Source of the DNA: Oligoflexia bacterium
Lineage (GTDB): Bacteria > Bdellovibrionota > UBA1018
NCBI GenBank assembly: GCA_903895855.1
Contig: CAITVN010000072.1
Span: 67,932-131,931, forward strand
Reading direction: 5' to 3'
Length of the DNA stretch: 64,000 nucleotides
Shown: positions 18,449-42,026 of the stretch, piece by piece
Layout of the letters: every line of letters starts with the position of its first letter
Numbering within the stretch: position 1 is the first letter of the stretch
Position numbers and translations under genes: made by a program
Notes under the pieces: model-generated
Told to the model about the DNA's origin: nothing
The model's database searches: none
Seen by the model: the letters and a program-made list of their open reading frames with translations, nothing else

Positions 18449-18720
18449 AAAGGCATACCTGCCTTTTTTTCGGCAAACTCTTCATTTTGAGATTTGAGAT
18501 AGTCAAAAACAAATTGAGCTTCAACTTCGTCAATGACCGAAAGGGCAAACCCAACGTGAATGAGCACGTAATCACCGACTCTGGCCTCGGGCACAAAAGC
18601 CAAACTCACTTCTTTGACTACGCCGCCGATACTCACCCGTCCAACGGCAGTCAACTCACTTTCATTACCCAACTCAGGAAGCGAAATTTCAATGAGCTTT
18701 GCAGGAACTGAAAGACACAT
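18445..18720 (-). CDS. hypC: hydrogenase maturation protein HypC
   Basis: 91 aa beginning MCLSVP, the HypC MC(L/I)(A/G)(I/V)P motif. Confidence 0.85.
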
Positions 18721-18751
18721 GATTAAAACCTCTTTATTCTATACTCACCAC

Positions 18752-21088: not shown

Positions 21089-21093
21089 CTCAT

Positions 21094-21825
21094 CTAATTC
21101 GCAACCGAACCCAGTCGAACGTAGTCAAGCCACGCATCTAAGCCCTGGCCAGTCTTCGCACTCAAACACAAAATCGGAGCGGCTGCGTTCACACCGCGTA
21201 TGTGCTGAACACAGGTCGCAAAACTGAACTCTAGATACTGAACCAGGTCGATCTTAGTGATGACAATGAGATCAGCCTCATGAAAGAGTAACGGGTACTT
21301 CGATGGTTTGTCTTCACCCTCGGTTGTCGATAGTATGGCAACTTTTCGGCTTTCTCCCAAATCAAACGACGCTGGACACACCAAATTACCCACATTCTCA
21401 ATGATCAGGTGACTAAACTCTGGCTTCACAAATTCACCCAACTCGCCTCGAATCATCGCAGCGTCTAAATGGCACGAACTTGCTGTATTCAATTGCTTGA
21501 CCTTCGCGCCAGCGGCCTCAAGCCTCTTAGCATCAAAGTCTCGTTCTTGATCTCCAACCAGAATGCCAAGGTTGATCGAGTCCTTCAAGCGAGTACTCGT
21601 TTTTTCTAAGAGCAGCGTTTTTCCAGAGCCCGGAGCACTCATCAAGTTGAACACCAACAGCTTGTGATCTAAAAACCATTGGCGATTGGTTTCTGCAATT
21701 TTGTTATTCTTATCTAAGATCGACGTCTTAACTTCAATTTTTCGAAATTTTAAATTTTCTTTTTCTCTTCGAATCTCTTCAAATGCGACTTTATTGGCTT
21801 GTTGGCAACCGCAGTCTATACACAT
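21094..21825 (-). CDS. hypB: hydrogenase nickel-incorporation GTPase HypB
   Basis: N-terminal MCIDCGCQ metal-binding motif and GSGKT P-loop. Confidence 0.9.
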   Translation of the reverse strand: MCIDCGCQQANKVAFEEIRREKENLKFRKIEVKTSILDKNNKIAETNRQWFLDHKLLVFNLMSAPGSGKTLLLEKTSTRLKDSINLGILVGDQERDFDAKRLEAAGAKVKQLNTASSCHLDAAMIRGELGEFVKPEFSHLIIENVGNLVCPASFDLGESRKVAILSTTEGEDKPSKYPLLFHEADLIVITKIDLVQYLEFSFATCVQHIRGVNAAAPILCLSAKTGQGLDAWLDYVRLGSVAN

Positions 21826-21854
21826 AAATCAACCTTTCTCAGCGTTCAACTCTG

Positions 21855-22100
21855 TCACAGAACATCTAAGTCAATGATTCGAAAGTCTCGACCCAGTTTC
21901 ACAAAATCTAAAATCAATTGAGCTTCTTCTAAGATCGACCCTTTGCAAACTTCTGGAAAGCAAAATTCAAAACAGTGCCGATCGACACCGCTCAATTCTC
22001 CGAGCTCTAAATGAATTTTGACCACCCGCTCAAATTTTTCTCGCACCGCAATTTCGGCAACCTGTTCGACAAGCGCCGTTGCTAATGAAAGCTCATGCAT
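21855..22100 (-). CDS. hypA: HypA-like nickel insertion protein, truncated (no zinc-finger domain)
   Basis: 81 aa with an MHE N-terminus (Ni site) and a HypA-like helical N-domain. The ORF stops 29 nt before hypB, and no CxxC...CxxC zinc motif is present. Confidence 0.7.
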   Translation of the reverse strand: MHELSLATALVEQVAEIAVREKFERVVKIHLELGELSGVDRHCFEFCFPEVCKGSILEEAQLILDFVKLGRDFRIIDLDVL

Positions 22101-22566
22101 CGAACACCTTCGACACTTCGTTGAGTGCAGCCGCTAAGTTCAATCTTGCTGCTGGCGTCAAACCTTCTTCTAGATTCCATTCGTAACCCAAAACTGCCAA
22201 TAGAAAGGTTCGAGGCATTCGTCCATATAACTTCTGACACAAATTCAACACAGCACCAGGGCTCATCGAGTGGCTGGTAAACGCGAATTCGTCTTCGGGG
22301 GTCACCTCTCGAAACTGGTATGGCCAACTAACCCCTTTTTCTTGGCTAGCGTCAACAAAGACCACGATCTCATACTCAGAAATAAGCAGGGCGTCTTCAA
22401 CGTTGAGTTGATAATTCGAATCAAACGCCGCCCAAGCAGGTAAACTCTTCTTCTGAAGCTGCTCAATCACTTCGACCCCCAACGCATCGTCTCGACGCCC
22501 CGGGTTGCCGATTCCGTAAAATAAGACACGGTCACTAGGCTTTCGAGCCAATACTTCGAGGTTCAA
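22093..22566 (-). CDS. hoxW: hydrogenase maturation endopeptidase (HoxW/HybD family)
   Basis: 157 aa with VLFYGIGNPGRRDDALG, the HycI/HybD protease signature. Confidence 0.8.
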   Translation of the reverse strand: MNLEVLARKPSDRVLFYGIGNPGRRDDALGVEVIEQLQKKSLPAWAAFDSNYQLNVEDALLISEYEIVVFVDASQEKGVSWPYQFREVTPEDEFAFTSHSMSPGAVLNLCQKLYGRMPRTFLLAVLGYEWNLEEGLTPAARLNLAAALNEVSKVFDA

Positions 22567-24038
22567 GTGCCTGCTCCGTCAAAGTCACCCACATTTTTAA
22601 TTCTGCGGTCAAGTTGATTGCCGTCCAAATCCTGCAAGACCAGCTCTAAAGGCATCTGCCCAACTGCATGAGTCGCACAACTGAGACAAGGGTCGTAGGC
22701 ACGGATAGCAACTTCGACTTGGTTCAGCATTCCCTCAGGAATTTCCTTATGACCGTTGATCACCTTTTGTGCAACCCAAGTCACCCCGCGATTCATGGCC
22801 TCATTATTACTCGTCGTTGAAACAATCAAATTACATAGGGTGATCTGGTCATTTTGGTCGACACGGTAATGGTGAAATAAAGTGCCTCGCGGGGCCTCAA
22901 GAACCCCAACCCCTTCGCCCGACCTCTCACCGGTTTTGACCAGTTCTCCGTGAATGATATCGGGATCTTTCAAAAGCTCGCGAATCATCTCAATGGCATG
23001 CAACGCTTCAATGAGCCTTGCCCAGTGCATGTGCATCGACATGCCATTGGGTTTACCTTGAGTATAGGCTTTGTACTGCTCAAATTCTTTTTGTGCTAAC
23101 GGAGTCGGAATGAAGTCACAAGTGTTGAGCCGCGCTAGTGGGCCCACTCGATACCAACCCTTTTCAGAGCCCAGCGAAATAATGTGTGGAAACTTCATGT
23201 AAGTCCAACTGCGAACTTCTTCTGTGATGTAGTCGGAATAGTTTTGATAATCGACTTGATCAAAAATCTTTGCGCCGTCGCTATCAACGGCTCGCAAAAC
23301 GCCGTGATACAAATCAAGAGCCCCATCTTTTCGTACTAAGCTCAAGTAATTTGATGAAAATGCGGCAAAACCATCAATGAATTCGTGGTTCTTCTTGTGA
23401 TAACCTTTGAACAATTCAAGACCCTCTTGAATCCAGTCAACCATCAGGTCAACGTTAAATTCTGGAGTCCCCACCAACAACTGGTCGCGCTCTTCGGGCG
23501 TCAGTCTCTTATTCACTCCCCCCGGAATGGCTCCGGTGCCATGAATTTTCTTTCCAGCCGTCAGGTGAATCACAACTTGGCCAAATTTTCGCATCAAAAC
23601 AGCTTTTTTAGCAATCTCGGGAAATGCACCAATCACGCCGATGATATTTCGCTTGAGAGGATCTGAATTGACACCGAACAAGAGATCGGGCGAAGCCAAA
23701 TGAAAAAAATGTAAAACATGAGACTGAAAAAACTGACCGTAATGCATGAGTCGGCGCATTTTGTCAGCCGTAGCAGTTAACTCACCCGATGAGGTGCCCA
23801 CTATCACATCCATTGCTTTTGAGGCACACAACTGATGACTGACCGGACAAATGCCACAGAGCCTTTGCACAAGCACTGGCGCTTCCCAAAAGGGACGCCC
23901 CTGCACAAAGCGCTCAAACCCTCGAAATTCAACGATATGAAGCCTACTTTGAACGACCTGATTATTGTCATCAAGCTTGATCGTGACCTTGCCATGCCCT
24001 TCGACTCGAGTAATCGGTTCTATGGTTATTTTTCTCAT
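22563..24038 (-). CDS. hoxH: [NiFe]-hydrogenase large subunit, NAD-reducing/bidirectional type (HoxH)
   Basis: N-terminal RVEGHG and RLCGICPVSH motifs. C-terminal DPCLSCATH is followed by a cleavable extension. 491 aa is typical of group 3 enzymes. Confidence 0.9.
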   Translation of the reverse strand: MRKITIEPITRVEGHGKVTIKLDDNNQVVQSRLHIVEFRGFERFVQGRPFWEAPVLVQRLCGICPVSHQLCASKAMDVIVGTSSGELTATADKMRRLMHYGQFFQSHVLHFFHLASPDLLFGVNSDPLKRNIIGVIGAFPEIAKKAVLMRKFGQVVIHLTAGKKIHGTGAIPGGVNKRLTPEERDQLLVGTPEFNVDLMVDWIQEGLELFKGYHKKNHEFIDGFAAFSSNYLSLVRKDGALDLYHGVLRAVDSDGAKIFDQVDYQNYSDYITEEVRSWTYMKFPHIISLGSEKGWYRVGPLARLNTCDFIPTPLAQKEFEQYKAYTQGKPNGMSMHMHWARLIEALHAIEMIRELLKDPDIIHGELVKTGERSGEGVGVLEAPRGTLFHHYRVDQNDQITLCNLIVSTTSNNEAMNRGVTWVAQKVINGHKEIPEGMLNQVEVAIRAYDPCLSCATHAVGQMPLELVLQDLDGNQLDRRIKNVGDFDGAGT

Positions 24039-24040
24039 TT

Positions 24041-24595
24041 TTAGTCGTACCTCACTAAATCAAAATTGAGTTCATCGAGAGATTTTCCGGCGATCAAAAG
24101 ATTCAAGGCTTCCCACAGGAGATCAGCTCTTGGTGGGCATCCAGGTAAGTACCCATCGATCTTCACAATCTCATGACAGGGGTAGACTCGATCGAGTAAC
24201 ATCGGAATTTCTTCATCGTTCGGTATTTGAGAACTTTTGCTGTCTACAGTCGGGCCAGTTAAGAAAGCCTCTTTAAATAATTCAGCTACCGGAATGCCAT
24301 TTCGAAGAGCGGGTAAACCACCAGTAATGGCACATTGGCCGACCGACACTAAAATTTTGCAGTGTTTTCTAAAGTCTCTCAACACCCTGACATTTTCGCT
24401 ATTGCAGCAACCGCCTTCAATCAGGCCAATGTCACACATTTGAGTGAACTCTTTAATATCGTCGATCGGTGATTTGTCGAAAGTGACCAACTCTACTAGA
24501 TCTAAGATTCGCTCATCAATATCGAGAAGTGACATATGGCATCCGAAACAGCCCGCAAGTGAAGTGGTCGCCAGCACTAATTTTTTCTTTTTCAT
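24041..24595 (-). CDS. hoxY: [NiFe]-hydrogenase small subunit (HoxY)
   Basis: 184 aa with Cys motifs for the proximal Fe-S cluster (GCFGCH, GCP). Short group 3 small subunit. Confidence 0.85.
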   Translation of the reverse strand: MKKKKLVLATTSLAGCFGCHMSLLDIDERILDLVELVTFDKSPIDDIKEFTQMCDIGLIEGGCCNSENVRVLRDFRKHCKILVSVGQCAITGGLPALRNGIPVAELFKEAFLTGPTVDSKSSQIPNDEEIPMLLDRVYPCHEIVKIDGYLPGCPPRADLLWEALNLLIAGKSLDELNFDLVRYD

Positions 24596-25290
24596 AGCTG
24601 TTTACCATCCTTCTCATGTTTGCGATCAAACCGCCTCTGACCAATGGGCACCCGAAAGCCAACACGTTTTTGAATCAATGCGCCTACCGGGCAAATTTCC
24701 ATCGCTTTTTTTGCCGTCGCTTCTGAGACCGCCTCCGGATCAGTGACATCCACGGTGATTCGAACATCACTTCCCCGGCGCATGAATCCGAAAATTTCAT
24801 GCCCATCTTTCGCACGAACCCCGCGAACACAGCGCAGGCACTGAATGCAACGCTTATGCTCGATAAATAAGTGCGCCATTCGCGCTTCAACCTTCTGAAC
24901 CGGAAACAAAAACGGATATCGAGGCACCACAATTCGATAGTGATGGGCCAACTCTTGCAATTCGCAATTACCGCTCTTTTCACAGCTAGGACACATGTGA
25001 TTGCCCTCGACAATGAGCATTTCTACTAGAGCTCGTCTAAGATCAGTGAGCTCAGCGGTTTCATTCTCTACGACCATGCCGTTGACCGCCGGACTCGTAC
25101 AACCAGGCACAAATCGCCCTCCAACCTTTACCGTACAAACGCGGCAAGTTCCGGCAGGACTCAAACTTCGAAAATCACAAAGGGTCGGAATAAATAGTCC
25201 ATTCTCGCGCGCGGCCTGAACAATGCTCTGGCCCTCTTTGGCAACACACTCTTTTCCGTCAATCGTTAGACTAATTTGGCCTTGTTCCAT
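24592..25290 (-). CDS. hoxU: diaphorase Fe-S subunit HoxU (NuoG N-terminal-like)
   Basis: 2Fe-2S ferredoxin N-terminus plus 4Fe-4S cysteine clusters (CIQCLRC). Confidence 0.85.
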   Translation of the reverse strand: MEQGQISLTIDGKECVAKEGQSIVQAARENGLFIPTLCDFRSLSPAGTCRVCTVKVGGRFVPGCTSPAVNGMVVENETAELTDLRRALVEMLIVEGNHMCPSCEKSGNCELQELAHHYRIVVPRYPFLFPVQKVEARMAHLFIEHKRCIQCLRCVRGVRAKDGHEIFGFMRRGSDVRITVDVTDPEAVSEATAKKAMEICPVGALIQKRVGFRVPIGQRRFDRKHEKDGKQL

Positions 25291-27142
25291 CTACCACCTC
25301 ACTATCAATTTCAAGATTGGGTTTTCGGTTAGCAGCTACGCAAGAATCAATCACAGCAAACTTCAAATCAAACTGCGACAAGAAGTCGACATCTGCTCGA
25401 ACTTTCTTTTGATAAATCTCAGTGAAATTTCGAATAGTACTCAACAACGGGTGCGGTGAGCTCTGACCCAATCCGCAGCGCGAGGTGGCTTTAATCGTTT
25501 TGCCGAGCTGCTTTATATTTTCAATATCAGCGGCGGTTCCGTTTCCAACCATGATTTTCTCTAGTGCCTTAATTAGAAGGGTATTGCCCGTTCGGCAGGG
25601 AACACAGAAACCACAGCTTTCATCTTCAAAAAACTCCATGTAGTTGTGAACAATCGACAGAAGATCGCGTTTTTGACCAAAAATAGTGACGGCGCCACCA
25701 GTCGATAGATCAGAAAAACAAAGTTTTCGATCGAATTCATTCTGCGAAATACACTGGCCTGATGGCCCCCCCACCTGAACCGCTAAAACATCTTTCGCGC
25801 CACAAATTGCCAAGAGCTCGCGAATCGACATTCCCCACTCCACTTCGTAAATCCCCGGTCGTTCACAATCACCCGCGACACTGAGAACTTTCACGCCACT
25901 CGATGCTGGGGTGCCCATTTTTCTAAACCAAGCAGCACCGTTTAAAATGATTTTTGCGGCGGCTCCGAAAGTCTCAACATTATTGACGATGGTTGGCCTT
26001 CGAAGGTATCCCGAAGTCACCGGATACGGCGGTCGATTTCTCGGCTGACCTCGCTTACCCTCAGCCGACTCAATGAGCGCCGACTCTTCGCCACAGATGT
26101 ATGCACCAGCTCCAACTTTAATCTGAATATCAAAACTAAACCGAGTGCCTAATATTCGGCGGCCCAACAAATGTTCTTGGCGCATCTTTGTCAGAACATT
26201 CTCTAAATAATCCTTCAAATAGGCGTACTCGCCCCTCAAATACAAAATTCCGTGTTTGGCTTCGATAGCATAGCCAGCGACTGCCATTCCCTCAAAAATC
26301 AATTCAGGCATTTCGGTAAGCAGCACTCGATCTTTAAACGTACCGGGTTCACCTTCATCAGCATTGCACATGACATAGCGAGTTTCAGACTCGGCAGCCC
26401 GACAAAAACCCCATTTTTGGCCCGTATCAAAGCCAGCACCGCCGCGCCCTCTCAAACCAGACTGTTTGACTTCATCGATCACTTCGAGCGCTCCGTGATT
26501 CATCGCAGCTTTTAATGCGGTACCTGGTTCAAAATCGGTAAAGAACACTGGCCCTCGAACTCGAATGTGATTAGACACTTCAGCATGAATTTCTTCTAGT
26601 GCATTTTTACCATCGCCAAGCGACTCAACGAGATCTCGCACGGGCCGATTGGCTTTCATACCAGCGACTATTTTTGTGACTTTCGCGTCAGTCATTCGGG
26701 TGAAAACTACATCATTAATTAGAATCGCAGGCTCTTGATCGCACATGCCAATACAAGAAGTTGTTCTCAAACCGATCTGCCGATCACTCGTCGTTTCTCC
26801 GAATGAGATGCCCACCTCTCTTTCGAATGCCTTGACTATCGCATGAGAACCCGCCATCTCGGCAGTCGCACTAGTGTTCACATAAACTGTGTAATTACCC
26901 CGATGAGTGCGCGAAAGAAAATGATAGAATGTAGCAACTCCCTCAACATGAACGCGCGAGAGATCCATTTCTTCGGCGATGAGAGTGATTACTTGCGGCG
27001 ACAAGTGCCGCCATCTACTCTGACATTCGCGCAAAACAGCCAAAAGTTGTGTTCTATCACCGCGAACCTGATCAATGATTTCGATGATGACATTTCGAGT
27101 TTCGTTCAAATCAAGAATCGTTCTCTCGTTCATGCAGAACAT
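25271..27142 (-). CDS. hoxF: diaphorase flavoprotein HoxF (fused NuoE-like and NuoF-like)
   Basis: 623 aa with an N-terminal thioredoxin-like 2Fe-2S domain and a C-terminal NADH/FMN-binding domain (GAGAYICGEESAL) with a 4Fe-4S site. Confidence 0.9.
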   Translation of the reverse strand: MFCMNERTILDLNETRNVIIEIIDQVRGDRTQLLAVLRECQSRWRHLSPQVITLIAEEMDLSRVHVEGVATFYHFLSRTHRGNYTVYVNTSATAEMAGSHAIVKAFEREVGISFGETTSDRQIGLRTTSCIGMCDQEPAILINDVVFTRMTDAKVTKIVAGMKANRPVRDLVESLGDGKNALEEIHAEVSNHIRVRGPVFFTDFEPGTALKAAMNHGALEVIDEVKQSGLRGRGGAGFDTGQKWGFCRAAESETRYVMCNADEGEPGTFKDRVLLTEMPELIFEGMAVAGYAIEAKHGILYLRGEYAYLKDYLENVLTKMRQEHLLGRRILGTRFSFDIQIKVGAGAYICGEESALIESAEGKRGQPRNRPPYPVTSGYLRRPTIVNNVETFGAAAKIILNGAAWFRKMGTPASSGVKVLSVAGDCERPGIYEVEWGMSIRELLAICGAKDVLAVQVGGPSGQCISQNEFDRKLCFSDLSTGGAVTIFGQKRDLLSIVHNYMEFFEDESCGFCVPCRTGNTLLIKALEKIMVGNGTAADIENIKQLGKTIKATSRCGLGQSSPHPLLSTIRNFTEIYQKKVRADVDFLSQFDLKFAVIDSCVAANRKPNLEIDSEVVDGTRPN

Positions 27143-29632: not shown

Positions 29633-30691
29633 CTAGCTGTCGATCGTAGGCATCGAGCCCATCAAATCGTGTTCTCGTCGCGGAGCCGGCTTAATCATTC
29701 CACGCTTGCGAAGCTTTTCGACCAGAGTCGTGCGATTCATGTGCAGAAGTTCGCTTGCGCGATTTTTATTATTGCTAGTACGAGCCAGGGCTTGATCAAT
29801 TAAATGATTTTCAAAAGCATCAACAATTGCCTTCAAATCAAGACCCAAATTAGGAAGAACCATTCTCGGAAATTCCCAACCCGAGATGGCGCCAGTGGCC
29901 TGCGGCTGTTCTTCGACGAATTTTTGAAAAATCCTATGAGGAAGATCACCCAAATCAACAGTACCTTGGCCTTTTAGGATCACTAGGCGCTCCATCAAGT
30001 TTTCAAGTTCCCGCACATTGCCTGGCCAATCATAAGCCATCAAAGCATCAAGAATTTTTCCGACCGGAGCCTCAACTGTGTGCCCAGTGAGATCGTTAAA
30101 TTGTTTTACGAAATGATTGATTAAAATAGAGACGTCAGTTCTACGCTCGCGAAGTGACGGAACGCGAATCGGTATCACATTCAAGCGATAATAGAGGTCT
30201 TCGCGAAATTCTTTCTTGCTGGCTGCGGCCTCAAGATCACGATTGGTAGCCGCGATAATTCGGACATCGACTTCCATCGTCTTCGATGAGCCAACTGGCT
30301 CAAATTGTCTGGTCTGAAGTACGCGCAACAATTTCGATTGCAGTTGAAGTGGCAGTTCGCCAACTTCATCTAAGAACAAAGTTCCACCGTGAGCCATCTC
30401 GAAACGACCGATTCGAGTTTGCATAGCACCAGTGAAAGCTCCTCTCATGTGGCCGAAAAGTTCGGCTTCTAAGAGTTCTGCCGGAATCGCGGCACAATTG
30501 ACGACGACAAGCGGCTGCGAAGCACGATTTGAATTTTCGTGAATGGCTCTTGCCACGAGTTCCTTGCCAGTTCCACTTTCTCCTGTTATCAGAACTGTGC
30601 TGTCAGTCTGTGCGACTTTTTCGATTGTGTTAATGACGTTTTGGATTGCTTGACTTTCCCCGACTAGAGGCGACTTGAACGTGAGCATCAA
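29633..30691 (-). CDS. sigma-54-dependent transcriptional activator (AAA+ plus HTH, no receiver domain)
   Basis: [14 protein letters not shown] and a C-terminal HTH, with no N-terminal sensory domain. It is followed by its own intrinsic terminator. Confidence 0.85.
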
Positions 30692-30850: not shown

Positions 30851-31408
30851 CTAGAAGGCATAGCCAAAACTAAATCCCGCCCAGAGCGACAAATTACTGC
30901 TGATCATTGCGTAAGCGGTCGCCCGAAACAGAAAACCGGCATCGCCGCGGTCTTCAAAACCTAATCCGGCCGTCGGAATAACCGCTCCCGACGAAAATGT
31001 GACGTTGCCAACTTTTGGGCTCGTGCCCACGACCGAATTCGCATTTGCCAACAAAGTAATTCCGCCAGTAGCAAAAACTGAAGACTCATCTTTGGCAAAA
31101 TAATAATTAAAATACGCAGGAATTAAAAGTGCTGTTGAGCCCAAACTATTCGAAACAGTCCCGAACGAAAAGCCAGCAGCCGTCACATCACTCATCGCTC
31201 GATCATAAAAAATACCATAGAGAAGGCCTCGGCCCAAAATTTCGCCACCCACCACATTGGGATTACTGAGTCGCGTTTGCTCTCTCGCGACAGCAACCGT
31301 TGAAAACAAAGTAAATGCGGCCAAAATCACCAAAAACAAGCGCAAAACCGATGTTTTTTTCATATTCGTTTTCCTCACTGAAAGAGCCAAAGTACCGATC
31401 TTGTCCAT
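30851..31408 (-). CDS. small outer-membrane beta-barrel protein (OmpW/OmpA-like fold guess)
   Basis: 185 aa with a signal peptide, alternating hydrophobic beta-strand pattern and a C-terminal aromatic residue (...FGYAF). Confidence 0.5.
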   Translation of the reverse strand: MDKIGTLALSVRKTNMKKTSVLRLFLVILAAFTLFSTVAVAREQTRLSNPNVVGGEILGRGLLYGIFYDRAMSDVTAAGFSFGTVSNSLGSTALLIPAYFNYYFAKDESSVFATGGITLLANANSVVGTSPKVGNVTFSSGAVIPTAGLGFEDRGDAGFLFRATAYAMISSNLSLWAGFSFGYAF

Positions 31409-31602
31409 TTTTCTGAATTCAGATCACCACGAAAAATACCCCACGCTAGAGTCAAAATTCCCAAGAAGCCGCCGGTACTCAAGCAGATCCACTGCCATTT
31501 ACTTTTCTTACGCCGAAAATGAAAAGTCAGGTCAGCTAGCACAATCATCGCGGGTACAGCAATATAGGGAAACGCTTTCACGCCAATAAAAAGATAGTAC
31601 AT
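31375..31602 (-). CDS. possible small two-TM membrane protein
   Basis: 75-aa ORF with two hydrophobic helices. It overlaps the start of the outer-membrane protein gene by 34 nt. Coding status is uncertain. Confidence 0.3.
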   Translation of the reverse strand: MYYLFIGVKAFPYIAVPAMIVLADLTFHFRRKKSKWQWICLSTGGFLGILTLAWGIFRGDLNSEKWTRSVLWLFQ

Positions 31603-32935: not shown

Positions 32936-33157
32936 ATGTTATTGTCTCTTTCCTTTAAAAAAAATCCGAATCTGCTGTCTAATAACCCCAACAAGGCCCC
33001 AGAATAACCAAGATAAGCAAAGTGAGAACCACTTCGACTTGGCTTGGCTAAATCAGAGATCACGGATTTTTCGCGATGATTTAACTTCACTTCTTGCTAA
33101 CGACAAACGAACTAAACCCCAAAGCCTGGCACCTAAAACGCCCCCAGCTTCGTTAAA

Positions 33158-33283
33158 TTAGTCTTTATGTATCGCAAACTTAGGCGTTGTTCCTTTGTTT
33201 TGCTGTTCTTTTTTTCGACCCTTGCCTTTATTGCGTTTTTTCACATTGCGGGCGTTACGAGTTTTTCCGGTTCTTGATGACAT
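33158..33283 (-). CDS. candidate 41-aa highly basic peptide (MSSRTGKTRNARNVKKRNKGKGRKKEQQNKGTTPKFAIHKD)
   Basis: Hand-translated ATG..TAA ORF in the A-rich metK upstream region. It is below the ORF-track length cut-off. It could be a chance ORF in AT-rich DNA. Confidence 0.2.
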   Translation of the reverse strand: MSSRTGKTRNARNVKKRNKGKGRKKEQQNKGTTPKFAIHKD

Positions 33284-33372: not shown

Positions 33373-34965
33373 TTGCAGAAATTCACCAAACCTATGGCAA
33401 ACCAAACTATCGAAAAGCCCTCACGACGGTCATTATTCATTTCACTTAGCCTGAGACTACCCCTCGCCCTACTGAGCACAGGCCAAATAGACCTAGCCTA
33501 TTCAGCCGAGCAGGCCCCAGTTCAAGCCACTAGTCAGCGATTACCCGCATTGCGAATTTCAATCGGCGAACAGCGGCTTCTGCATTTTGAAAAAATCCAT
33601 CAGTACACGATCGGCTCTGAGTCCGTAATTCATGCTAAGCGCCTCGAAAAAAGCGATCACCTCATGATCAAGGGCATTTCAGTCGGAAAAACCGACCTCT
33701 GGGTTTGGACTGAACCCAACCTTGTGAAAATGCGGTCGGTCATCGTTAATCCTTTGAGATACCCCTCACAAAATTCGAGAAGAAGCTCAAATCAGACAGG
33801 GCAAGACGAATCATTAGATTCAGTCAACTTGCCCGAAAGCCTACTCGCCGAAACCGAAAGCTTGCAAGAAATCGAGGTTACCTATGGCAAATCGACCCTT
33901 TTACTCACCGGAGAGCTGAATACCGAAGAAGAAGCAAAAAAAATCGCCACTCTCAAGCTAGCTTTTCCATCAATGATCGACGACCAAACAACCGTATCGT
34001 CAAAACTTGCTAGGATCGGAAAAAATAAACTCGAAAACTGGCTTGCCGACTCAAAAAATCCTTATCAACTGAAAGTGACGGTCACAGATCAGAGGCTCAA
34101 AATTGAGGGCGATGTGCTCAAATCTGACTCAAAGAAGACCTTAGAAAAAACCGTTCACCAACTGGTTCCGTGGTGTGACATCGACTTTGACTCACCGCCA
34201 GACAGAGCCCCAACCGTGCACTTGAAGGCCACGATACTAGAACTCGAAACCCACGCATTCAAAAAAATCGGCAGCCAACTTTCACAGACCTCCCCCATTC
34301 AGGCGCAGATTTTCTCTCAAGTCTCACTTTCACCAGCCGAATTTGATCTCTGGCTAAGCACCATCGAGGCCGACGGTCAGGCTAAGGTACTTTCAAAACC
34401 CGACCTTGTACTCAGAGTACCTGGCGAAGCTGAACTCTTTTCAGGCGGCGAGCTTCCGATACTCAAAAAAAACCACGTGAGCTCAGACATCGAATGGAAG
34501 CCCTTCGGCCTTCAACTCAAAGTCAAAATGCAGTCTGAATCGGGCTCTTACCTTCGCCTCGACATTCAAGGCGAAGTTTCAAGCCTAGCGCCTGAGATTT
34601 CTTCAACTGAAAACACACCGGGTATTAAAACCAACCGATTTCACTCTCAAGTTGACGCCAAATACGGAGTTCCGCTCCTGCTTTCAGGCCTTCTGCAAAA
34701 CCGTTCACACTCGCTGAACCAGGGAATACCTTGGTTTCGAAAAATTCCGTTAATAGGGGCGTTTTTCGGCACTGACGAAGAAAAATCTGAAAATACTGAG
34801 ATTGTGGCCATTCTCTTAATCGAAAAAAACTTGCCCCACGTGAGGCCCGATTCGGTGCGTGTTCGATCTGATCTCACCGAAGCAGCTGCCCGAGAATCAG
34901 AGACTGCAGCACCCACTCTATCCCCCGGGCGATTGTGGATTGAACGAAAGGCGATCATTCAATGA
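33373..34965 (+). CDS. secretin (CpaC/RcpA-like, Tad/T2SS family)
   Basis: TTG start and a signal peptide. The C-terminal secretin domain is GVPLLLSGLLQNRS...IPWFRKIPLIGAFFG...TEIVAILL. Confidence 0.75.
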   Translation: MQKFTKPMANQTIEKPSRRSLFISLSLRLPLALLSTGQIDLAYSAEQAPVQATSQRLPALRISIGEQRLLHFEKIHQYTIGSESVIHAKRLEKSDHLMIKGISVGKTDLWVWTEPNLVKMRSVIVNPLRYPSQNSRRSSNQTGQDESLDSVNLPESLLAETESLQEIEVTYGKSTLLLTGELNTEEEAKKIATLKLAFPSMIDDQTTVSSKLARIGKNKLENWLADSKNPYQLKVTVTDQRLKIEGDVLKSDSKKTLEKTVHQLVPWCDIDFDSPPDRAPTVHLKATILELETHAFKKIGSQLSQTSPIQAQIFSQVSLSPAEFDLWLSTIEADGQAKVLSKPDLVLRVPGEAELFSGGELPILKKNHVSSDIEWKPFGLQLKVKMQSESGSYLRLDIQGEVSSLAPEISSTENTPGIKTNRFHSQVDAKYGVPLLLSGLLQNRSHSLNQGIPWFRKIPLIGAFFGTDEEKSENTEIVAILLIEKNLPHVRPDSVRVRSDLTEAAARESETAAPTLSPGRLWIERKAIIQ

Positions 34966-35927
34966 CCCCTTCGAACACCACAACTGAAGGCCTGCAACAG
35001 CTCATCGAAACAGGAATTTTCAACCACTTGCCAATCTGTGATGTGTGCATCACCCCTGTGGTCAACGGCACTACCGCGCAAGTCTTTGTCGACACTGGCG
35101 AAGGAATGGTAGAACTGCCCAGCCAAATTTCTCACAGTCAGGTTCAACAATGGGCACTGGGTCTCATGAACAAATCGGGCAGAAGCTGGGATGCCAAGTA
35201 TCCGTTCATGGATTTTCGCCACATCGATCAATGCGGAGCCTGGCGGGTGCACATCGCCTTTCAACCTGCCTCGGTACATGGGCCCAGCATTTCACTTCGC
35301 CGTCTTTCAGTAGGCTCTTCAAGCGCCCGAAACTGGCAACCGACATCACATTTTGAACTCTTGAAAAAAGCTGTCGATAACAAAGAAAGTATTCTGATCG
35401 CTGGGGCCACCGGATCTGGAAAAACAACCTTACTCAGTGATCTACTGGGTTATGCCGCGGCCAGCGAGCGCATTTTAGTTCTCGAAGACACTCCAGAAAT
35501 TTCTACCGCCCACCCCCATGTTTTGAATTTGTCGGCGCGCCCCCCTAATTCAGACGGCATGGGTGAAATCACCTTGCGACATCTCGTTCGTGAATCTCTT
35601 CGCATGAGGCCAGATCGAATCATTCTGGGCGAATGCCGAGGTGGAGAAGTTCTCGATTTGCTTCAAAGCCTCAACACTGGACACCGCGGCTCGCTTGCGA
35701 CACTTCACGCCAACAGCGCAAGAGATGCGTTGCGTCGACTTGAATTACTTTGCTACCTTCAAGCCACCAACCCGCCACCTCATTCTATCATTCGGGATCT
35801 CATTGTACACGGCGTTCAGTGGGTGGTGCACTTGCGTCGAAATAACGGTTCGAGAGTGATTTCTGAAATTCTTCGAATTGAGGGGCGCGAAGGAGATACC
35901 ATCTTGGCTAGGCCCATGTTAGACTAG
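34962..35927 (+). CDS. CpaF/TadA/VirB11-family secretion ATPase
   Basis: Walker A GATGSGKTT, Asp box VLEDTPE and His box LGECRGGE. It overlaps the secretin stop by 4 nt. Confidence 0.8.
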   Translation: MTPSNTTTEGLQQLIETGIFNHLPICDVCITPVVNGTTAQVFVDTGEGMVELPSQISHSQVQQWALGLMNKSGRSWDAKYPFMDFRHIDQCGAWRVHIAFQPASVHGPSISLRRLSVGSSSARNWQPTSHFELLKKAVDNKESILIAGATGSGKTTLLSDLLGYAAASERILVLEDTPEISTAHPHVLNLSARPPNSDGMGEITLRHLVRESLRMRPDRIILGECRGGEVLDLLQSLNTGHRGSLATLHANSARDALRRLELLCYLQATNPPPHSIIRDLIVHGVQWVVHLRRNNGSRVISEILRIEGREGDTILARPMLD

Positions 35928-35932
35928 GGCCC

Positions 35933-36382
35933 ATGTTGCATCCGAAGACTTTCTCAAAACAATTTCACTTAGTGATGTCAGTTGTCTACTTAGTTGGCGG
36001 GTTAATCTTTTTCTTTTTACCCAAAGAGCTCTTCTACTTCATTAATGTCGTGCCGACGGTTTTTCACATCGGAAACCCGGTTTCTGAATCAAGCGAATAC
36101 TTCTGGCTAGCGCTGGCGACCTCGATGATGATCATGCTCAGTTTGATTAGTTTTCTCAGCTACAAAACCAAGTCAGCTGAAACGTTAAAAGCCTTGATGA
36201 GCGTTCACGCCCTTTCGAAGATAACGTCAACGCTAGGATTTTTATTGTTAGCACTCAAAGGCCATGTGTTCGCCTATTGGTCTGGAATCATCACCGATTT
36301 TCCGCTTTTCTTGATCGTCATTTGGCTGATAACGAAGGTCGACGTAATTACCGAGACTTCGAAAGGTTCTCCTGAAGCATGA
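35933..36382 (+). CDS. small four-TM membrane protein, hypothetical
   Basis: 149 aa with four hydrophobic helices and no recognised motif. Confidence 0.45.
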   Translation: MLHPKTFSKQFHLVMSVVYLVGGLIFFFLPKELFYFINVVPTVFHIGNPVSESSEYFWLALATSMMIMLSLISFLSYKTKSAETLKALMSVHALSKITSTLGFLLLALKGHVFAYWSGIITDFPLFLIVIWLITKVDVITETSKGSPEA

Positions 36383-37392
36383 GCTCAATTTCAAATCAGC
36401 CATTCTGGAATCGACCCGACACCAACCTTTCTCGAGGTTTTCAAGAAGTTTGGTACCTCAAATTTAATATTCCCAATACGCAGTCGGCTCTTTGGCTTCG
36501 ATTCACTTTGCTCAGCTCTTCGAACCAATTCAGACAAGTCGCCGAACTTTGGGGAATTTACTTTGACCACCAAAATGGAGCGACTTCAAAACTCGCCCTC
36601 AAACAAACGTTCGCAATGAGTGCCGCATCTTTCGACCCCCCAGTTATCAAGATCGGACAGTCTACTTTATCGAATCAGGCAACTGACGGGGTGATTCAAT
36701 CTCGCGGCAAATCGATTGCGTGGAGCCTAAAAACAACCCAGCGCTCGGTAGCATCGTGCAACCTGGTACCCAAACCGCTTTCACAACTAAAACTGGTGAA
36801 AAATACGGTTGAGTCGGTCTACGAAGACCTGCTGTTTTCTGGCTGGATCGAAATCGATGGAAATCGAATTGAAATCGACAAAGCCCTCGGAATGCAAGCA
36901 CACCTGGCTGGCCCAAAGAATGGCCACAACTGGGTCTGGGCCCACTGCAATTCATTCACTGACGAAAAAAATCACCTCAAAGATTTTGTCTTCGAAGGCT
37001 TGGCAGCAAGAGCCCGACTTCCGGGTGGCTTGCCCACACCAACGATCACCAGCCTCTATTTTTGGTACCAAGGCAAACCGTACTTTTTTAGCACTCCCAC
37101 CGATTGGTTTCGCTGCCATCAGAAATTGAAACCAAACTGTTGGGAAATTCAGGCTGAACGAGGCAAGTTGCGATTTCAAGGCACCATCGAATTTGAACTG
37201 CGCGATTTTGCGGGAGTCACTTACGAAGACACCGATGGATCACTCTTGTATTGCTCAAATTCAAAACTCTCGAACGCCCGATTTTCGGTTTATGAAAATG
37301 GGCGGTTGATTGAAAATTTCGTTTCGAAGCGATCGGCCGCACTTGAAATCGTGAGCCGAGAGAAAAATCTATACACCCCACTACTCGTGTAG
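36379..37392 (+). CDS. hypothetical protein
   Basis: 337 aa soluble protein with no motif I can assign. Translationally coupled to the preceding gene. Confidence 0.5.
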   Translation: MSSISNQPFWNRPDTNLSRGFQEVWYLKFNIPNTQSALWLRFTLLSSSNQFRQVAELWGIYFDHQNGATSKLALKQTFAMSAASFDPPVIKIGQSTLSNQATDGVIQSRGKSIAWSLKTTQRSVASCNLVPKPLSQLKLVKNTVESVYEDLLFSGWIEIDGNRIEIDKALGMQAHLAGPKNGHNWVWAHCNSFTDEKNHLKDFVFEGLAARARLPGGLPTPTITSLYFWYQGKPYFFSTPTDWFRCHQKLKPNCWEIQAERGKLRFQGTIEFELRDFAGVTYEDTDGSLLYCSNSKLSNARFSVYENGRLIENFVSKRSAALEIVSREKNLYTPLLV

Positions 37393-37553
37393 CTGCATCA
37401 GTTTGCGAATCGCCGAATAGCTCGAGTGCTTTGAAAAGTGATGAACTCTGCCAAAAACCAAGGTCATCATGATCGCCCACATACCGATGACCTCAAAAAT
37501 CATTTTGGAGATTTCATGAGTCGATTTAGTCGCCTGATGAGTCGTCTTATTTT

Positions 37554-38597
37554 TCATGTCGATTCTTTCATCACCAAAGCCATTGCGACCACCAGGAGCG
37601 AGAGAACAGAGGGTAAAACAAAGAGAAACAAAGGCTTGATCGCCCGAGTGGGTAGCGTCGATAACCCCTTCTTGAGCTCTGAACTCCAATTGATTTGAAA
37701 CGCCTGAATTGAAGCCCCAATGCGATCTAGGCAGGGCCGCCCATCAAAAAGGCTCGCCCGAATCGAAATGAGCAATTGCTCACGAAAATCGCTCACCCAG
37801 AAAGGAAGTGATTTAAACTCGTCGGTTTCATAAGAATGACGCGTTTCAAATCGAAAGGGCCCCCAAAAATCAGCGAGCAAACTCGAATGTTGGGCTAGGG
37901 TTTCTAGCGTTTGATTCCAACCTCGGTCGGCGGGCTCACCCGCTTTGATTTGACTCATCAATTTCTCGGCACCTGCCATCAACCAAATCGGCCAATCTTT
38001 TTGTGAAGCATTCAAGCCGACTGAAAAAATCAGGTCGATTTCGCGACTAAGAAAATAGGCACCTAACACCGACCAACTCATCGAAAACAGAACAACGCAA
38101 AACCACAAGGCACTGTCAGCCGAAATCACATCCAGGAGCGCATAGAGCCCGGCTCCAGTGATCGGAACCAACAAGAAACAAATCCAGATCTGAGCACGAG
38201 CTGGCGCCGCTAACGCGTGAGCCTCAGCTAGAGTTTGGTGACTCAGCTCAATCAGCCCTTTGAATCGGTCAAAAACAGGAATGATCGAAGCCCCTCTTTT
38301 TCGCAGTTGATCGACACACTCAAAAAGCACCCCACCCCAGGGAGTAGGTAACGACTGAACCGCACTGCCCCAGTTCTCAGGCAGACTCAAGCCCACTTCG
38401 AGTCTCGATTTCAGATCTCTGATCACTTCTCGCACTTGCTCAAGCTTTGTTAGCGCGACGAAACTCGGGTTCTCTTTTCTAAAAATGAAGCTACGGAGAG
38501 CTGAAACCGAGAACCAGCTCTTTGCTGCCAAGATTAATAGTGCCACCGCGACTGACCAGGCAAAGTAAGATGAAGCCATAAGGTCTTTGCTATTCAA
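37554..38597 (-). CDS. polytopic membrane protein, hypothetical
   Basis: 347 aa with about four TM helices and two soluble loops. TTG start. It might be a TadB/GspF-like platform protein, but I cannot support that from motifs. Confidence 0.4.
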   Translation of the reverse strand: MNSKDLMASSYFAWSVAVALLILAAKSWFSVSALRSFIFRKENPSFVALTKLEQVREVIRDLKSRLEVGLSLPENWGSAVQSLPTPWGGVLFECVDQLRKRGASIIPVFDRFKGLIELSHQTLAEAHALAAPARAQIWICFLLVPITGAGLYALLDVISADSALWFCVVLFSMSWSVLGAYFLSREIDLIFSVGLNASQKDWPIWLMAGAEKLMSQIKAGEPADRGWNQTLETLAQHSSLLADFWGPFRFETRHSYETDEFKSLPFWVSDFREQLLISIRASLFDGRPCLDRIGASIQAFQINWSSELKKGLSTLPTRAIKPLFLFVLPSVLSLLVVAMALVMKEST

Positions 38598-38909: not shown

Positions 38910-39191
38910 TCAAATTTTTGACTGTACAGGTGGTCTGCCTGGCAAGCGAAACACCAAATCACCTAGGCTACCCAGAAGCCGATCGCACTCCTCGAGGTAT
39001 TTTTCAGGAACCTGAAGCTCCATATCGCGAAAATGGTCGGTAATCGGACCCGGTAGCGTCGAATAACTGACGATTCCATCTTGAGCTTCGAGAACCGTGT
39101 AGAAAAAGGCTGAATCCTCTTTTTTTACACGAACGAAAACCCAATAGACTCCTTTTGAAAATTCTGGGGCTGGATGCAGTTTTTCAGGCAT
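38910..39191 (-). CDS. small hypothetical protein
   Basis: 93 aa with balanced composition, divergent from the cpoB-like gene. Confidence 0.4.
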   Translation of the reverse strand: MPEKLHPAPEFSKGVYWVFVRVKKEDSAFFYTVLEAQDGIVSYSTLPGPITDHFRDMELQVPEKYLEECDRLLGSLGDLVFRLPGRPPVQSKI

Positions 39192-40164
39192 GTTCTTTCC
39201 AAGCGTGTTATTTTTTAACTATATGATGGCTTCGACAATTATCGGTAAACAAGAAAAAATTCGAGTACAAACGCTCAGCTCACTCAATCTTTTACTCTCG
39301 ACTCTGTTTTTAGTGGTCGTTTTGAGTGCCTGTGCAGGTTCTGCGAAAAAACCTGACGAAAAAGAAGCGGCCCCCGCTGCCCCCGCTGCCACTGCCGCCG
39401 CGCCAGCTGCCCAGACGCAAAATGACGAGCTGCGAGCCATGCTCCAAAATCTGAACACTCGAATCGACTCGCTCGAAACAAAACTAGGATCATTGAATGA
39501 AAAAGTAGATCAGACCAAAGGTCGGGTAGACCAGTCGGTCGCTGCACAAATGATGACGCCTGTTAACAGCCCTGCGAATTCAAAAAAAGGAATTTCTCCC
39601 GAAGTCGCAAAACGAAGCGAAGACCCTGAGTTCGGATTCATCACCGATCAAGCGGTCACTGAATTTCGTCGCGGCATGATTTTATTTGAAGGTAGTAAGT
39701 ACCCAGAAGCCGTTCTGCAGTTCACGTCGTTTCTTGAGCAATTTGCTGATCACGCCCTTGCCGGCAATGTACAGTACTACATTGGCGAATCTTATTTTCG
39801 CCAAAAAGAGTACAAACTAGCAGCTCAAGAATTTCAACGAGTCTTGACTTCATACGATCGCAGCCCCGCGATCTCAATGGCTCTGAAAGGGTTAGTACAA
39901 ACTTCAGATTCTCTCAAAAACGAAAAAGAAGCCTCACACTATCGACAAACACTGCTTTCATTGTTTCCGCAGTCACCGGCCGCCGGAGAACTCGCCAACG
40001 TAAAAATCAGTGCAACACCAGCGCCCGCGGCCGTTTCAGCGGCAGCCGCTCCCACAGCATCGGGCGGAGCCTCAGCCGCCGCCATGCCTGAAACTGCGCC
40101 GATTAAGGCTCAACCAAATGAAGCTTCACCCACGCATCCAGAAAAATCAGGAGCTCAACATTGA
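39190..40164 (+). CDS. CpoB/YbgF-like lipoprotein (coiled coil plus TPR)
   Basis: Lipobox LSAC, an Ala/Pro linker, a coiled-coil segment LQNLNTRIDSLETKLGSLNEKVDQ and C-terminal TPR repeats resembling CpoB. Confidence 0.6.
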   Translation: MFFPSVLFFNYMMASTIIGKQEKIRVQTLSSLNLLLSTLFLVVVLSACAGSAKKPDEKEAAPAAPAATAAAPAAQTQNDELRAMLQNLNTRIDSLETKLGSLNEKVDQTKGRVDQSVAAQMMTPVNSPANSKKGISPEVAKRSEDPEFGFITDQAVTEFRRGMILFEGSKYPEAVLQFTSFLEQFADHALAGNVQYYIGESYFRQKEYKLAAQEFQRVLTSYDRSPAISMALKGLVQTSDSLKNEKEASHYRQTLLSLFPQSPAAGELANVKISATPAPAAVSAAAAPTASGGASAAAMPETAPIKAQPNEASPTHPEKSGAQH

Positions 40165-42026
40165 AATCGACACCGAAAATCAAGCTGATCTTAGTCGCAG
40201 TTACCGCGGTGAATTTTTCTCAAGCAACTGCGGCTATCGCAGCCACTTCGGCAACAGTGAGTCAAGAACAAGAGGCCGCGAGGCTGGCTAAGCAACTCAA
40301 GCCCATTAACGATGCCACTTGGAGCACCGTCGCTTCAGCGAAAGCTACCGATCGGTACACCGTTACCAAAGGCGATACCCTTTACGATTTATCAAAAAAA
40401 CTTTTCAACGATTCAAAATACTGGCCGAAGCTTTGGGCGGTCAACAATGGCAATATTTTAAATCCTCACCTGCTCAAGCCAGGAATGACGATCACCTTTT
40501 CAAGCGGTACGGCGACCCAATTGCCCGAGGTCTCTGTTAATGATCCGAACGCTCTCATCACCCGTAGCGGATCAGCAACCAAGAACAGCACGGCGTCTGC
40601 TGCTACAGCGATGGCTTCGGCAGGCGAAACGAAGTCTGACGCTTCGGGATCGAGTGAGGCATCACCTTCAGTTTCAGGTGACTCAGGTGACACTCCAAAA
40701 AAGCGCTCCGAAGAATGGAAAACTCTGCCCGTTCAGTCTTGGGAATCAACCAACTTGAAACTGCCAGCAGGCGTCGACCGCGATGGGTTTGACGGCCGAA
40801 ACGCTCGCTTTAAGATTGCCCGAAAAACTGGGTTTGAAATTGAAGCGATTGCGGCGACTGATCGACTTGCTCACCTGGGGCGAATCATCGGGTCGCGCAC
40901 TGAAGCCTCGTTTCTCTCAATTGGCGATACCGTTTACATTGAAGCAGACGAAGAAATCAAAATCGGCGAGACTTATGTCATCACTAATGACCCCCAAAAA
41001 CTCAAATCTCGCAAATCTGACCGAACTGGCTACTCGTACAATATTTTAGGCCAAGTTCGAATATTGGGTGTTCGAGACAACCTTTATATTGGCACGATCA
41101 TTTCAGGCAAAGACGTCAGCTTTCGCGGAGCCGTTCTGATCAAGAATCAACTGAGAATTCCACAGATGGATGCCATCGCCGGCCCTGAATCAATTGAGGG
41201 CGTCTTGATGCTGAATAAAACCATTTCAACCTACGCGACGGCTCAGCACAAACTAGTCTTCATCGATAAAGGTTCAGACGATAAAGTGCGGCCGGGAATG
41301 GTCTTTCGGGCCTACCAGCATTACGATCCGGGAAATGACAAGAAACTCACCAACGCCGATTTCATCATCGCCGCTGACATTCAAGTGGTTCAAGTGAGTG
41401 AAATGTTCAGCTCTGGAATTGTGATTCGAACGATGATGCCGATAACAGAAAATACGAGTGTCGTGCTACTCACCGATGTCGCTGACCTGAAGTCTAACAA
41501 GGGTTTCAGAGATCGTAGCCCAGAAGATCGACGAAAAGATCAGGAGCTCGACGACCTCGACAAGCTAGACGGTGGCGCCGCTCTGAAAAAAGACGAACAA
41601 AAAGAATTGAAACAGCTTGAACAGTGGAAGCAAAACCCGGGAGAAGCCCCCGCAGCCCCTGGAGTACCCGCCGGTGAAACCAAAGGCAGTGAAACTAAAG
41701 TTGACGACACGAAAGGCACTCAGAAGCCCGAGCCAAAATCTGACTCAAACTCAGACGCTGCACTCGACTCTCTGGCTCCGCCTTCGGGAGATAGCCCGAG
41801 CCCCGCTGCGACTCCCCCCGCTGCGGCCACACCGCCAGAGACGGCGCCGCCATCGGGCGCAGGAACTGAGTCGCTTGCACCGCCGCCTTCGGCACCTGCT
41901 TCTAGTGAAGCCGTACCCCCAGCGCCGGCAGCGCCCGCAACTGAGACGGCGCCACCAGCACCAGCAACTCCAACGCCGGGAACTCCGCCCCCAGGGGCAG
42001 AAGACTTGGCTCCGCCATCGAATTAG
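40161..42026 (+). CDS. LysM-domain protein with Pro/Ala-rich repetitive C-terminus
   Basis: Signal peptide, LysM (YTVTKGDTLYDLSKKLF...WPKLWAVNN) and a C-terminal PAPA-rich tail with the SLAPPS motif three times. Confidence 0.7.
   Translation: MKSTPKIKLILVAVTAVNFSQATAAIAATSATVSQEQEAARLAKQLKPINDATWSTVASAKATDRYTVTKGDTLYDLSKKLFNDSKYWPKLWAVNNGNILNPHLLKPGMTITFSSGTATQLPEVSVNDPNALITRSGSATKNSTASAATAMASAGETKSDASGSSEASPSVSGDSGDTPKKRSEEWKTLPVQSWESTNLKLPAGVDRDGFDGRNARFKIARKTGFEIEAIAATDRLAHLGRIIGSRTEASFLSIGDTVYIEADEEIKIGETYVITNDPQKLKSRKSDRTGYSYNILGQVRILGVRDNLYIGTIISGKDVSFRGAVLIKNQLRIPQMDAIAGPESIEGVLMLNKTISTYATAQHKLVFIDKGSDDKVRPGMVFRAYQHYDPGNDKKLTNADFIIAADIQVVQVSEMFSSGIVIRTMMPITENTSVVLLTDVADLKSNKGFRDRSPEDRRKDQELDDLDKLDGGAALKKDEQKELKQLEQWKQNPGEAPAAPGVPAGETKGSETKVDDTKGTQKPEPKSDSNSDAALDSLAPPSGDSPSPAATPPAAATPPETAPPSGAGTESLAPPPSAPASSEAVPPAPAAPATETAPPAPATPTPGTPPPGAEDLAPPSN

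Follow-up and report, generated by a model that had tools for sequence, protein, structure and literature searches.

The 64-kb window analysed here (the whole stretch of 64,000 nucleotides from contig CAITVN010000072.1 of an Oligoflexia bacterium, phylum Bdellovibrionota) encodes an RcpA/CpaC-type secretin and, immediately downstream, a short ATPase of the TadA/CpaF family; these are followed on the same strand by genes for two proteins of 149 and 337 residues (p149 and p337) and then by a convergent gene for a polytopic membrane protein of 347 residues (p347). All five open reading frames (ORFs) had been listed in a first-pass annotation made from the letters alone, and all are present in the window sequence (Table 1). 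The four co-directional genes are tightly packed: the secretin stop codon and the ATPase start codon overlap in caATGAcc (34962-34965), a 5-nt spacer (35928-35932) separates the ATPase and p149 genes, and the p149 and p337 genes overlap by 4 nt in ATGA (36379-36382), as first described. The 530-aa secretin of the first-pass annotation exists as an ORF beginning at TTG 33373, but gene callers start the gene at ATG 33394, giving 523 aa; they also start the p347 gene at 38579 (341 aa). The GC content of the locus is that of the surrounding window. We argue below that p347 is the platform protein of the secretin-ATPase pair and that the three proteins probably form the core of a Tad-type envelope machine.

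Table 1. Genes of the secretin-ATPase locus and its flank (positions in the window).
Gene product	Position	Strand	Remark
RcpA/CpaC-type secretin	33394..34965	+	523 aa from ATG
Short TadA/CpaF-family ATPase	34962..35927	+	321 aa
p149, four-transmembrane-helix membrane protein	35933..36382	+	149 aa
p337, soluble, predicted all-beta, remotely tocopherol-cyclase-like	36379..37392	+	337 aa
p347, predicted inner-membrane platform protein	37554..38597	-	347 aa, convergent
DUF4911-like small cytoplasmic protein	38910..39191	-	93 aa, weak PF16256 match

In a Pfam scan, the secretin has a signal peptide, the PF13629 N-domain found in RcpA/CpaC-type proteins (3.6e-05) and a C-terminal PF00263 domain (9.5e-27); its top PDB sequence matches are the Type II/III secretin 8jvb and then RcpA 8odn, in agreement with the CpaC/RcpA-type assignment made in the first pass. 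The ATPase matches PF00437 at 4.2e-39, and its top PDB match is CpaF (1.7e-49), with residues 31-317 aligned to CpaF 162-450, so that the first ~130 residues of CpaF are missing from the window protein. In an alignment of 35 homologues, the columns of the nucleotide-binding and catalytic motifs are invariant. The early description of a short, translationally coupled ATPase of the CpaF/TadA family is therefore upheld, and two components by which Denise et al. (2019) define a Tad/Flp (type IVc) system, an RcpA/CpaC-type secretin and a TadA/CpaF-family ATPase, are both encoded at the locus.

Among curated families, the ATPase matches TIGR03819 best (E 4e-74), the short actinobacterial TadA of a helicase/secretion neighborhood; the score of 249.8 bits falls below the cut-off of 373.15, so the window ATPase is not a member by curated score. 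Its homologues number in the thousands, the closest 120 of which span ~300-385 aa (most ~305-340), are 48-58% identical and, where named, come from metagenome-assembled genomes (MAGs) of Bdellovibrionales, Bdellovibrionia, Oligoflexia or Bacteriovoracia. When the ATPase alignment was used to scan genomes, one per species, orthologues were found in 5 MAGs (48-52% identity), with no cultured Bdellovibrio or Bacteriovorax genomes among them; the next tiers were Actinomycetota TadA proteins (36-44%) and ~700-aa ATPases of Bacteriovoracaceae/Halobacteriovorax, the 36-39% identity of the latter spanning residues 73-314 of the window ATPase. These ~700-aa proteins look like TadZA-type fusions similar to that of B. 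bacteriovorus tad locus 1; in loci L024, L026, L033, L035, L036, L039, L041, L049, L050 and L061 (~8.8-10.9 kb; loci other than the window are denoted here by L numbers), each is followed by a gene for a 296-aa T2SSF protein.

The decisive gene product is p347. A word-indexed homologue search was nearly blind for this protein (3, then 7 matches), and an exhaustive profile search of representatives was required; it recovered a family of 186 representatives among 1.84e9 proteins, nearly all of 320-350 aa. PF00482 (T2SSF) is matched by 33 of 88 aligned family members (best 9.7e-10), in the N-terminal half, and no other family recurs. An AlphaFold2 model computed from the family alignment is confident (pLDDT 93.2) and all-helical, with two units that each combine a helical bundle with transmembrane (TM) helices: an N-terminal TM helix is followed by a bundle and a TM hairpin (residues ~44-191) and then by a second bundle and a final TM helix (~202-346). 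With template profiles built from the T2SSF genes located 3' of related ATPases in other loci, hhalign aligns the N-terminal half with TadB-like proteins (93.5%, E 2e-7) and the C-terminal half with TadB/TadC-like proteins (72-73%, E 3e-5, ~120 columns); controls with reversed sequences reach at most 1.1%. The full-length profile is collinear with an actinobacterial fused TadB-TadC protein (92%, E 6.5e-7, 249 columns; query 49-345, template 23-301), and the only proteins of the related loci that an actinobacterial TadB hidden Markov model (HMM) matches are p347 homologues. A platform protein is marked by a helical bundle in the cytoplasm that leads into TM helices and by a gene adjoining that for the ATPase, and p347 has this arrangement in the model and in most loci. 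Judged from these profiles and the predicted structure, p347 appears to be a T2SSF-type platform with two T2SSF-like repeats, TadB-like and then TadC-like. The first-pass annotation had suspected a divergent TadB/GspF-like platform, and the family matches, profile alignments, model and gene neighborhoods now support that suspicion; its statement that the locus has no canonical platform genes remains correct in that there is no separate tadB or tadC, but one noncanonical, fused platform gene is present.

Gene neighborhoods were compared in 13 related loci (the window, L004, L006-L013 and L089-L091). The overlap between the secretin and ATPase genes is kept in all 13, and in 12 of the 13 the pair adjoins metK in the opposite direction; this metK-side position is common to MAGs of Bdellovibrionia, Oligoflexia and Bacteriovoracia. 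Of 12 informative loci, 10 have a p347-family gene adjoining the pair, among them all three that were retrieved with p347 homologues as query. This gene is mostly convergent; in L008, however, it lies on the same strand and overlaps the ATPase stop codon. A second set comprised 40 metagenome loci retrieved with p337, some of which may share species with the earlier ones; where these loci carried the pair, or were truncated within it, and had enough downstream sequence, a p347 homologue adjoined it in 12 of 16. In two of them (L098 and L130) the p347 homologue is co-directional with the pair and located 3' of p337, making three co-directional loci with L008. HMM scans identify a single ATPase and a single T2SSF-like gene in each related locus. 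From the identity of p347 as a platform and its linkage to the pair, we therefore take the core to be a secretin, a short ATPase and one two-repeat platform.

This composition can be compared with that of the Tad/Flp systems (Aggregatibacter tad, Caulobacter cpa and P. aeruginosa rcp-tad). They share with the window locus a PF13629-bearing RcpA/CpaC-type secretin, a TadA/CpaF-family ATPase, a T2SSF-type platform and the adjacency and coupling of the secretin and ATPase genes. The window locus differs in that its ATPase is without the N-terminal region of CpaF, that a single platform gene with both repeats takes the place of separate tadB and tadC genes, that this gene is usually convergent instead of being in the operon, and that flp, tadV, rcpC/cpaB, tadZ/cpaE, tadD and tadE/F/G are not found locally. 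The split platform, tadB and tadC with one T2SSF domain each, is a systematic trait of Tad systems that arose by gene fission (Denise et al., 2019; PMC6668835); in place of the two separate genes, each of our loci has one two-repeat chain. Because both repeats are in one chain, with the TadB-like repeat first (93.5% and 90% when compared with the gene directly 3' of tadA), p347 would be a fused version of canonical tadB and tadC. Its repeat order is that of the tadB-tadC gene order and opposite to the order reported for the domains of the archaeal platform (PMC6668835), which hints at a secondary re-fusion; we infer this event instead of reading it directly from the alignments because the C-terminal half discriminates poorly (73.2% vs 72.5%).

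Fused platforms also appear to occur in Actinomycetota. In Microbacteriaceae-type loci (L052, 10855-11778; L028, 10861-11889; L030, L031, L054 and others), a single platform gene encoding 307-362 aa is located 3' of the gene for a TIGR03819-type ATPase; by hhalign, its halves match TadB (99.8%) and TadC (99.2%), and such genes are found in Microbacterium, Cryobacterium, Okibacterium and others. By these matches it is a fused TadB-TadC platform, whereas actinobacterial systems without TadC have been described as having a one-domain TadB (Denise et al., 2019; PMC6668835). The actinobacterial TIGR03819-type Tad loci are among the closest relatives of the window ATPase outside its clade (36-44% identity), and the compact fused platform of the Microbacteriaceae is the one collinear with p347 (hhalign 92%, 249 columns); the actinobacterial systems, however, are monoderm and have no secretin. 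Loci of the TIGR03819 type also carry flp, tadE-like and CpaE-like genes with a DEAH helicase nearby, none of which is present among the Pfam labels of the Bdellovibrionota loci. The GspF/PilC platforms of type II secretion systems and type IVa pili are, like p347, single chains in which two T2SSF repeats are combined with three core TM helices. Unlike them, p347 is shorter (347 vs ~400 aa), has an extra N-terminal TM helix like TadB/TadC and has repeats whose matches are to Tad-type profiles; it is partnered by an ATPase of the TadA type, not the GspE/PilB type.

The genes that would supply a pilin to this core are not found nearby. The window scan covered all non-overlapped ORFs of at least 120 aa across the 64 kb, and among these there is no pilin, A24 peptidase, CpaB/RcpC, TadZ or second T2SSF protein; HMM scans of the window likewise give no second ATPase or second platform-like gene, and a six-frame motif scan of the window and nine related loci gives no conserved Flp-like ORF. 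The first-pass statement that the window has no flp pilin, prepilin peptidase, CpaB or TadZ is therefore confirmed, and it can be extended: the seven Pfam-labelled loci (L004, L006-L008 and L089-L091) contain no Flp, peptidase A24, RcpC or ParA/TadZ-like labels, and the flanks of the related loci, up to 10 kb on each side, contain no pilin, prepilin peptidase, RcpC/CpaB or TadZ. Thus, of the components of a Tad/Flp type IVc system, the Flp pilin gene, the dedicated TadV/CpaA peptidase, TadZ and RcpC/CpaB are absent from the locus; because they are absent from both window and flanks, pilin, peptidase and RcpC/TadZ must act in trans or be dispensable. Two candidate pilins were rejected: a 75-aa ORF with two TM helices located 3' of metK, which has no class III signal peptide, and a stretch within p149 ('G..SSEYFWLALA'), which is not conserved in homologues and lies inside a four-TM protein.

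The two genes between the ATPase and the platform were regarded in the first pass as non-Tad components and possible novel partners. The former view is supported by the Pfam run: p149 matches no Pfam or NCBIfam family, and p337 gives a weak match to PF14249 (tocopherol cyclase; 1.3e-05, 24.9 bits vs a gathering cut-off of 26.6) that covers only the C-terminal half of the profile. All five p337 homologues tested also match PF14249 weakly (best 3.1e-06); a single-sequence AlphaFold2 model of p337 is unusable (pLDDT 32). The latter view does not survive the comparison of loci. Among the first 13, homologues of p149 are found in the window, L004 (weakly), L006, L009 and L010, and p337 is present in six, two of which (L012 and L013) have p337 without p149; the pair is absent from L007, L008, L011 and L089-L091, and p337 is also absent from L004, so p337 is missing from seven of the 13. 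In L004 and L091 the slot is filled by other small membrane proteins. The secretin-ATPase pair (13/13) and p347 (10/12) of the five-gene arrangement are accordingly conserved, but p149/p337 is optional. In the second set, a short ATPase is encoded directly upstream of p337 in 18 of the 40 p337-anchored loci, and at least eight metagenome loci have p337, alone or with p149, but neither secretin nor ATPase genes within 4-6 kb; the neighbors of these stand-alone genes include CHASE2 adenylate cyclase, Usp, PLD, peptidase M1, GMC/FAD oxidoreductases, CoaE and pseudouridine synthase. Because about half of the loci do without p149/p337 and it also occurs in unrelated contexts, we regard it as a self-contained module and not as part of the conserved core; in one sub-lineage this module is inserted between the ATPase and platform genes and is co-transcribed with the machine.

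A recurrent context unrelated to pili is found in L108, L116, L118, L119 and L120 (~3.1-7.0 kb), in which the p337 gene, with or without p149, is divergent from the gene for a 778-aa CHASE2 adenylate/guanylate cyclase, with a tandem-Usp protein and a PLD-family protein encoded alongside.

An isolated secretin-ATPase pair has been described in the same phylum. According to a preprint by Tesseur et al. (bioRxiv 10.64898/2026.07.08.737194), tad locus 2 of B. bacteriovorus HD100 is a 'duplicated rcpA-tadA module' (rcpA2-tadA2) that is located away from the main tad locus, has an expression profile unlike that of the main Tad genes and may, in the authors' words, have 'accessory or Tad-unrelated functions'; flp3 of HD100 has the same unusual expression profile as the module. 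The preprint also describes the tad genes of B. bacteriovorus as dispersed and the Flp pilin as processed by the type IVa pilus peptidase PilD, and it reports no platform gene for the module. Like the window locus, HD100 tad locus 2 is thus an isolated pair of a secretin and a TadA in a member of the Bdellovibrionota, and the window locus may be its counterpart, a likeness of description and not of sequence. Proteome tables, which are indirect in this respect, give no obvious secretin-ATPase pair in the HD100 neighborhoods of metK (Bd0850) and topA (Bd0964). An attempt to tie the locus to HD100 gene numbers through papers and proteome tables (Bd0793, an apparent isolated tadA3; Bd3510, a small late-expressed secretin) gave nothing conclusive.

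We consider it rather probable that the locus is the core of a separate, pared-down envelope machine of the Tad type (type IVc filament family) that is conserved in uncultured Bdellovibrionota, to which a core with this fused platform is so far confined. Several results weigh against this interpretation. The window p347 itself matches no Pfam or NCBIfam family and gives no PF00482 hit at E<=1, so its link to PF00482 runs through its homologues; the C-terminal half alone gives Pfam matches in 0 of 30 cases, no internal repeat is detected between the halves (probability 0.3%), fold searches of the PDB with the model are uninformative, and profile searches of PDB sequences with p347 and with its C-terminal half give no matches. 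No p347 homologue is found in the available flanks of L004, L012, L097 and L103-L105. Because no pilin, peptidase, RcpC or TadZ is found, filament assembly is a step that we infer. The translational coupling of p337 to the ATPase in L013 and L012 makes a functional tie possible, and deletion of rcpA2-tadA2 leaves predation by HD100 unimpaired (bioRxiv 10.64898/2026.07.08.737194).

The last observation bears on the simplest alternative, that the window pair is a partial duplication, that is, a spare copy served by the TadB/TadC, pilins and accessory proteins of a complete tad locus, with p347 an unrelated neighbor. The only published description of such a pair is that of a duplicated module dispensable for predation; the lack of local pilin and accessory genes, and the few related loci in which the available flanks are without p347, would also fit a spare copy. 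However, p347 is by its profiles a T2SSF-type platform that is kept beside the pair in most loci and is overlapping or co-directional in three, the ATPase is 36-39% identical to the TadZA-like ATPases compared with 48-58% among its orthologues, and a metK-side position common to three classes suggests a unit of long standing that is maintained separately. Because of the dedicated platform gene, the fixed position and the low identity to TadZA-type ATPases, we judge a mere partial duplication to be decidedly unlikely. The absence of local pilin genes can also be read as indicating that the three proteins form a machine for the export of proteins or polymers, or for DNA uptake, with at most a very short pseudopilus and possibly with novel substrates; the suggestion of 'accessory or Tad-unrelated functions' for rcpA2-tadA2 points in this direction (bioRxiv 10.64898/2026.07.08.737194). 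The genes for pilin, peptidase, RcpC and TadZ are absent from every locus, and dprA is located 4 kb downstream in the window and in several related loci. Tad-type systems drive DNA uptake in some bacteria; the link to DNA uptake through dprA is nevertheless weak because the dprA-topA adjacency is lost in L089-L091. No conserved candidate for a substrate gene is found in the locus, and we know of no TadA/T2SSF machine that works without pilin-like subunits, so a non-pilus machine is unlikely.

The tight packing of the genes (a 5-nt gap and then a 4-nt overlap), the overlap of p337 with the ATPase stop codon in L013 and the 18 of 40 p337-anchored loci with a short ATPase directly upstream would be expected if all five genes formed one unit, with p149 and p337 as genuine new partners that, for example, replace TadZ/RcpC or modify a lipid or substrate. 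However, about half of the related loci retain the core trio of secretin, ATPase and platform but have no p149/p337; elsewhere p337, with or without p149, is found in unrelated surroundings that contain no gene of the type IV pilus type, and in L004 and L091 the slot is taken by other small membrane proteins. A five-gene unit is thus very improbable. We offer with considerable reserve, as possible but doubtful, a more specific form of the pared-down Tad-type machine, in which the locus represents a distinct type IV filament subtype confined to the Bdellovibrionota: a monoderm-style core (short TadA and re-fused TadB-TadC) that gained a secretin, has borrowed pilins or none and has a function other than that of the predation-linked Tad pilus.

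By analogy with characterized systems, the pared-down Tad-type machine might work as follows. The RcpA-type secretin would be the outer-membrane channel, p347 the inner-membrane platform and the ATPase its cytoplasmic motor; the latter, presumably a hexamer, would dock on the helical bundles that p347 exposes to the cytoplasm. Conformational changes powered by ATP would move pilin-like subunits out of the inner membrane to build a filament or a short pseudopilus, which would pass through, or gate, the secretin. Pilins, prepilin peptidase and RcpC/TadZ would be supplied in trans (e.g., flp genes and a shared PilD-type peptidase encoded elsewhere, as in B. bacteriovorus), or the machine would dispense with them.

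Several neighboring genes recur with the locus. The DUF4911-like gene (Table 1) shares its strand with the p347 gene and immediately precedes it in the window, L006, L011 and L089-L091; the two are 11-36 nt apart in L011 and L089-L091 and overlap by 4 nt in L013, and in L008, where the platform gene has changed position, the DUF4911-like gene is still found beside the TPR gene. It may share a transcript with the p347 gene as an operon partner; its membership in the system is uncertain. At 39190-42026 (+), the gene for a CpoB/YbgF-like TPR lipoprotein (lipobox LSAC, coiled coil and TPR) shows translational coupling to that for a LysM protein of 621 aa whose tail is long and rich in Pro and Ala, and this TPR-LysM pair adjoins the secretin locus in most related genomes; it is a candidate either for service to the secretin (as pilotin or FimV-like peptidoglycan anchor) or for the Tol-Pal system. 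The 75-aa ORF with two TM helices (31375-31602, -) has no family, is located directly downstream of metK and is conserved throughout the related loci; in L089 and L090 it overlaps the metK stop codon, and in L008, which has no metK, it stays beside the secretin region. A 41-aa ORF (33158-33283, -; MSSRTGKTRNARNVKKRNKGKGRKKEQQNKGTTPKFAIHKD) that lies between the metK and secretin genes is extremely basic and has no Pfam match; L001 and L089-L091 have a called gene of 41 aa in this position, and L008 has one of 46 aa just upstream of the secretin. A sigma-54-like element (TGGCAC-N5-ACGC, 33127-33141, +) lies ~265 nt upstream of the secretin start and 2.7 kb from the gene for a receiver-less sigma-54 activator (29633-30691); it was rejected as a promoter because it is not conserved in related loci and is probably a chance occurrence.

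The rest of the window contains flagellar genes, Mla genes, sigma-54 activators, metK, Ham1, DprA, TopA, two-component genes and genes for the biosynthesis of aromatic amino acids, in addition to the CpoB-like and LysM proteins. It also encodes a complete NAD-linked Hox-type [NiFe] hydrogenase (16296-27142, -), with NuoE/F-like and HoxU-like proteins, small and large subunits and hypB, hypD, hypE and hypF, which would be surprising to find in an obligate predator, if the organism is one.

The locus corrects the idea of an orphan secretin-ATPase pair, all of its core parts belonging to familiar families. Both the definition of the Tad family and the reconstruction of its past make use of the TadB/TadC split (PMC6668835); a diderm system in which a Tad-type secretin and ATPase are conserved with a single two-repeat platform would be an exception to this rule, as would the fused platforms of the Microbacteriaceae type, and detectors that require both tadB and tadC will miss or misclassify such systems. 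Fused platforms also bear on how the platform works, that is, on whether a heterodimer is equivalent to a pseudo-dimeric single chain. For the rcpA2-tadA2 module of Bdellovibrio, the locus provides a hypothesis: the module may have its own unrecognized platform gene and may constitute a machine of its own, not a spare copy.

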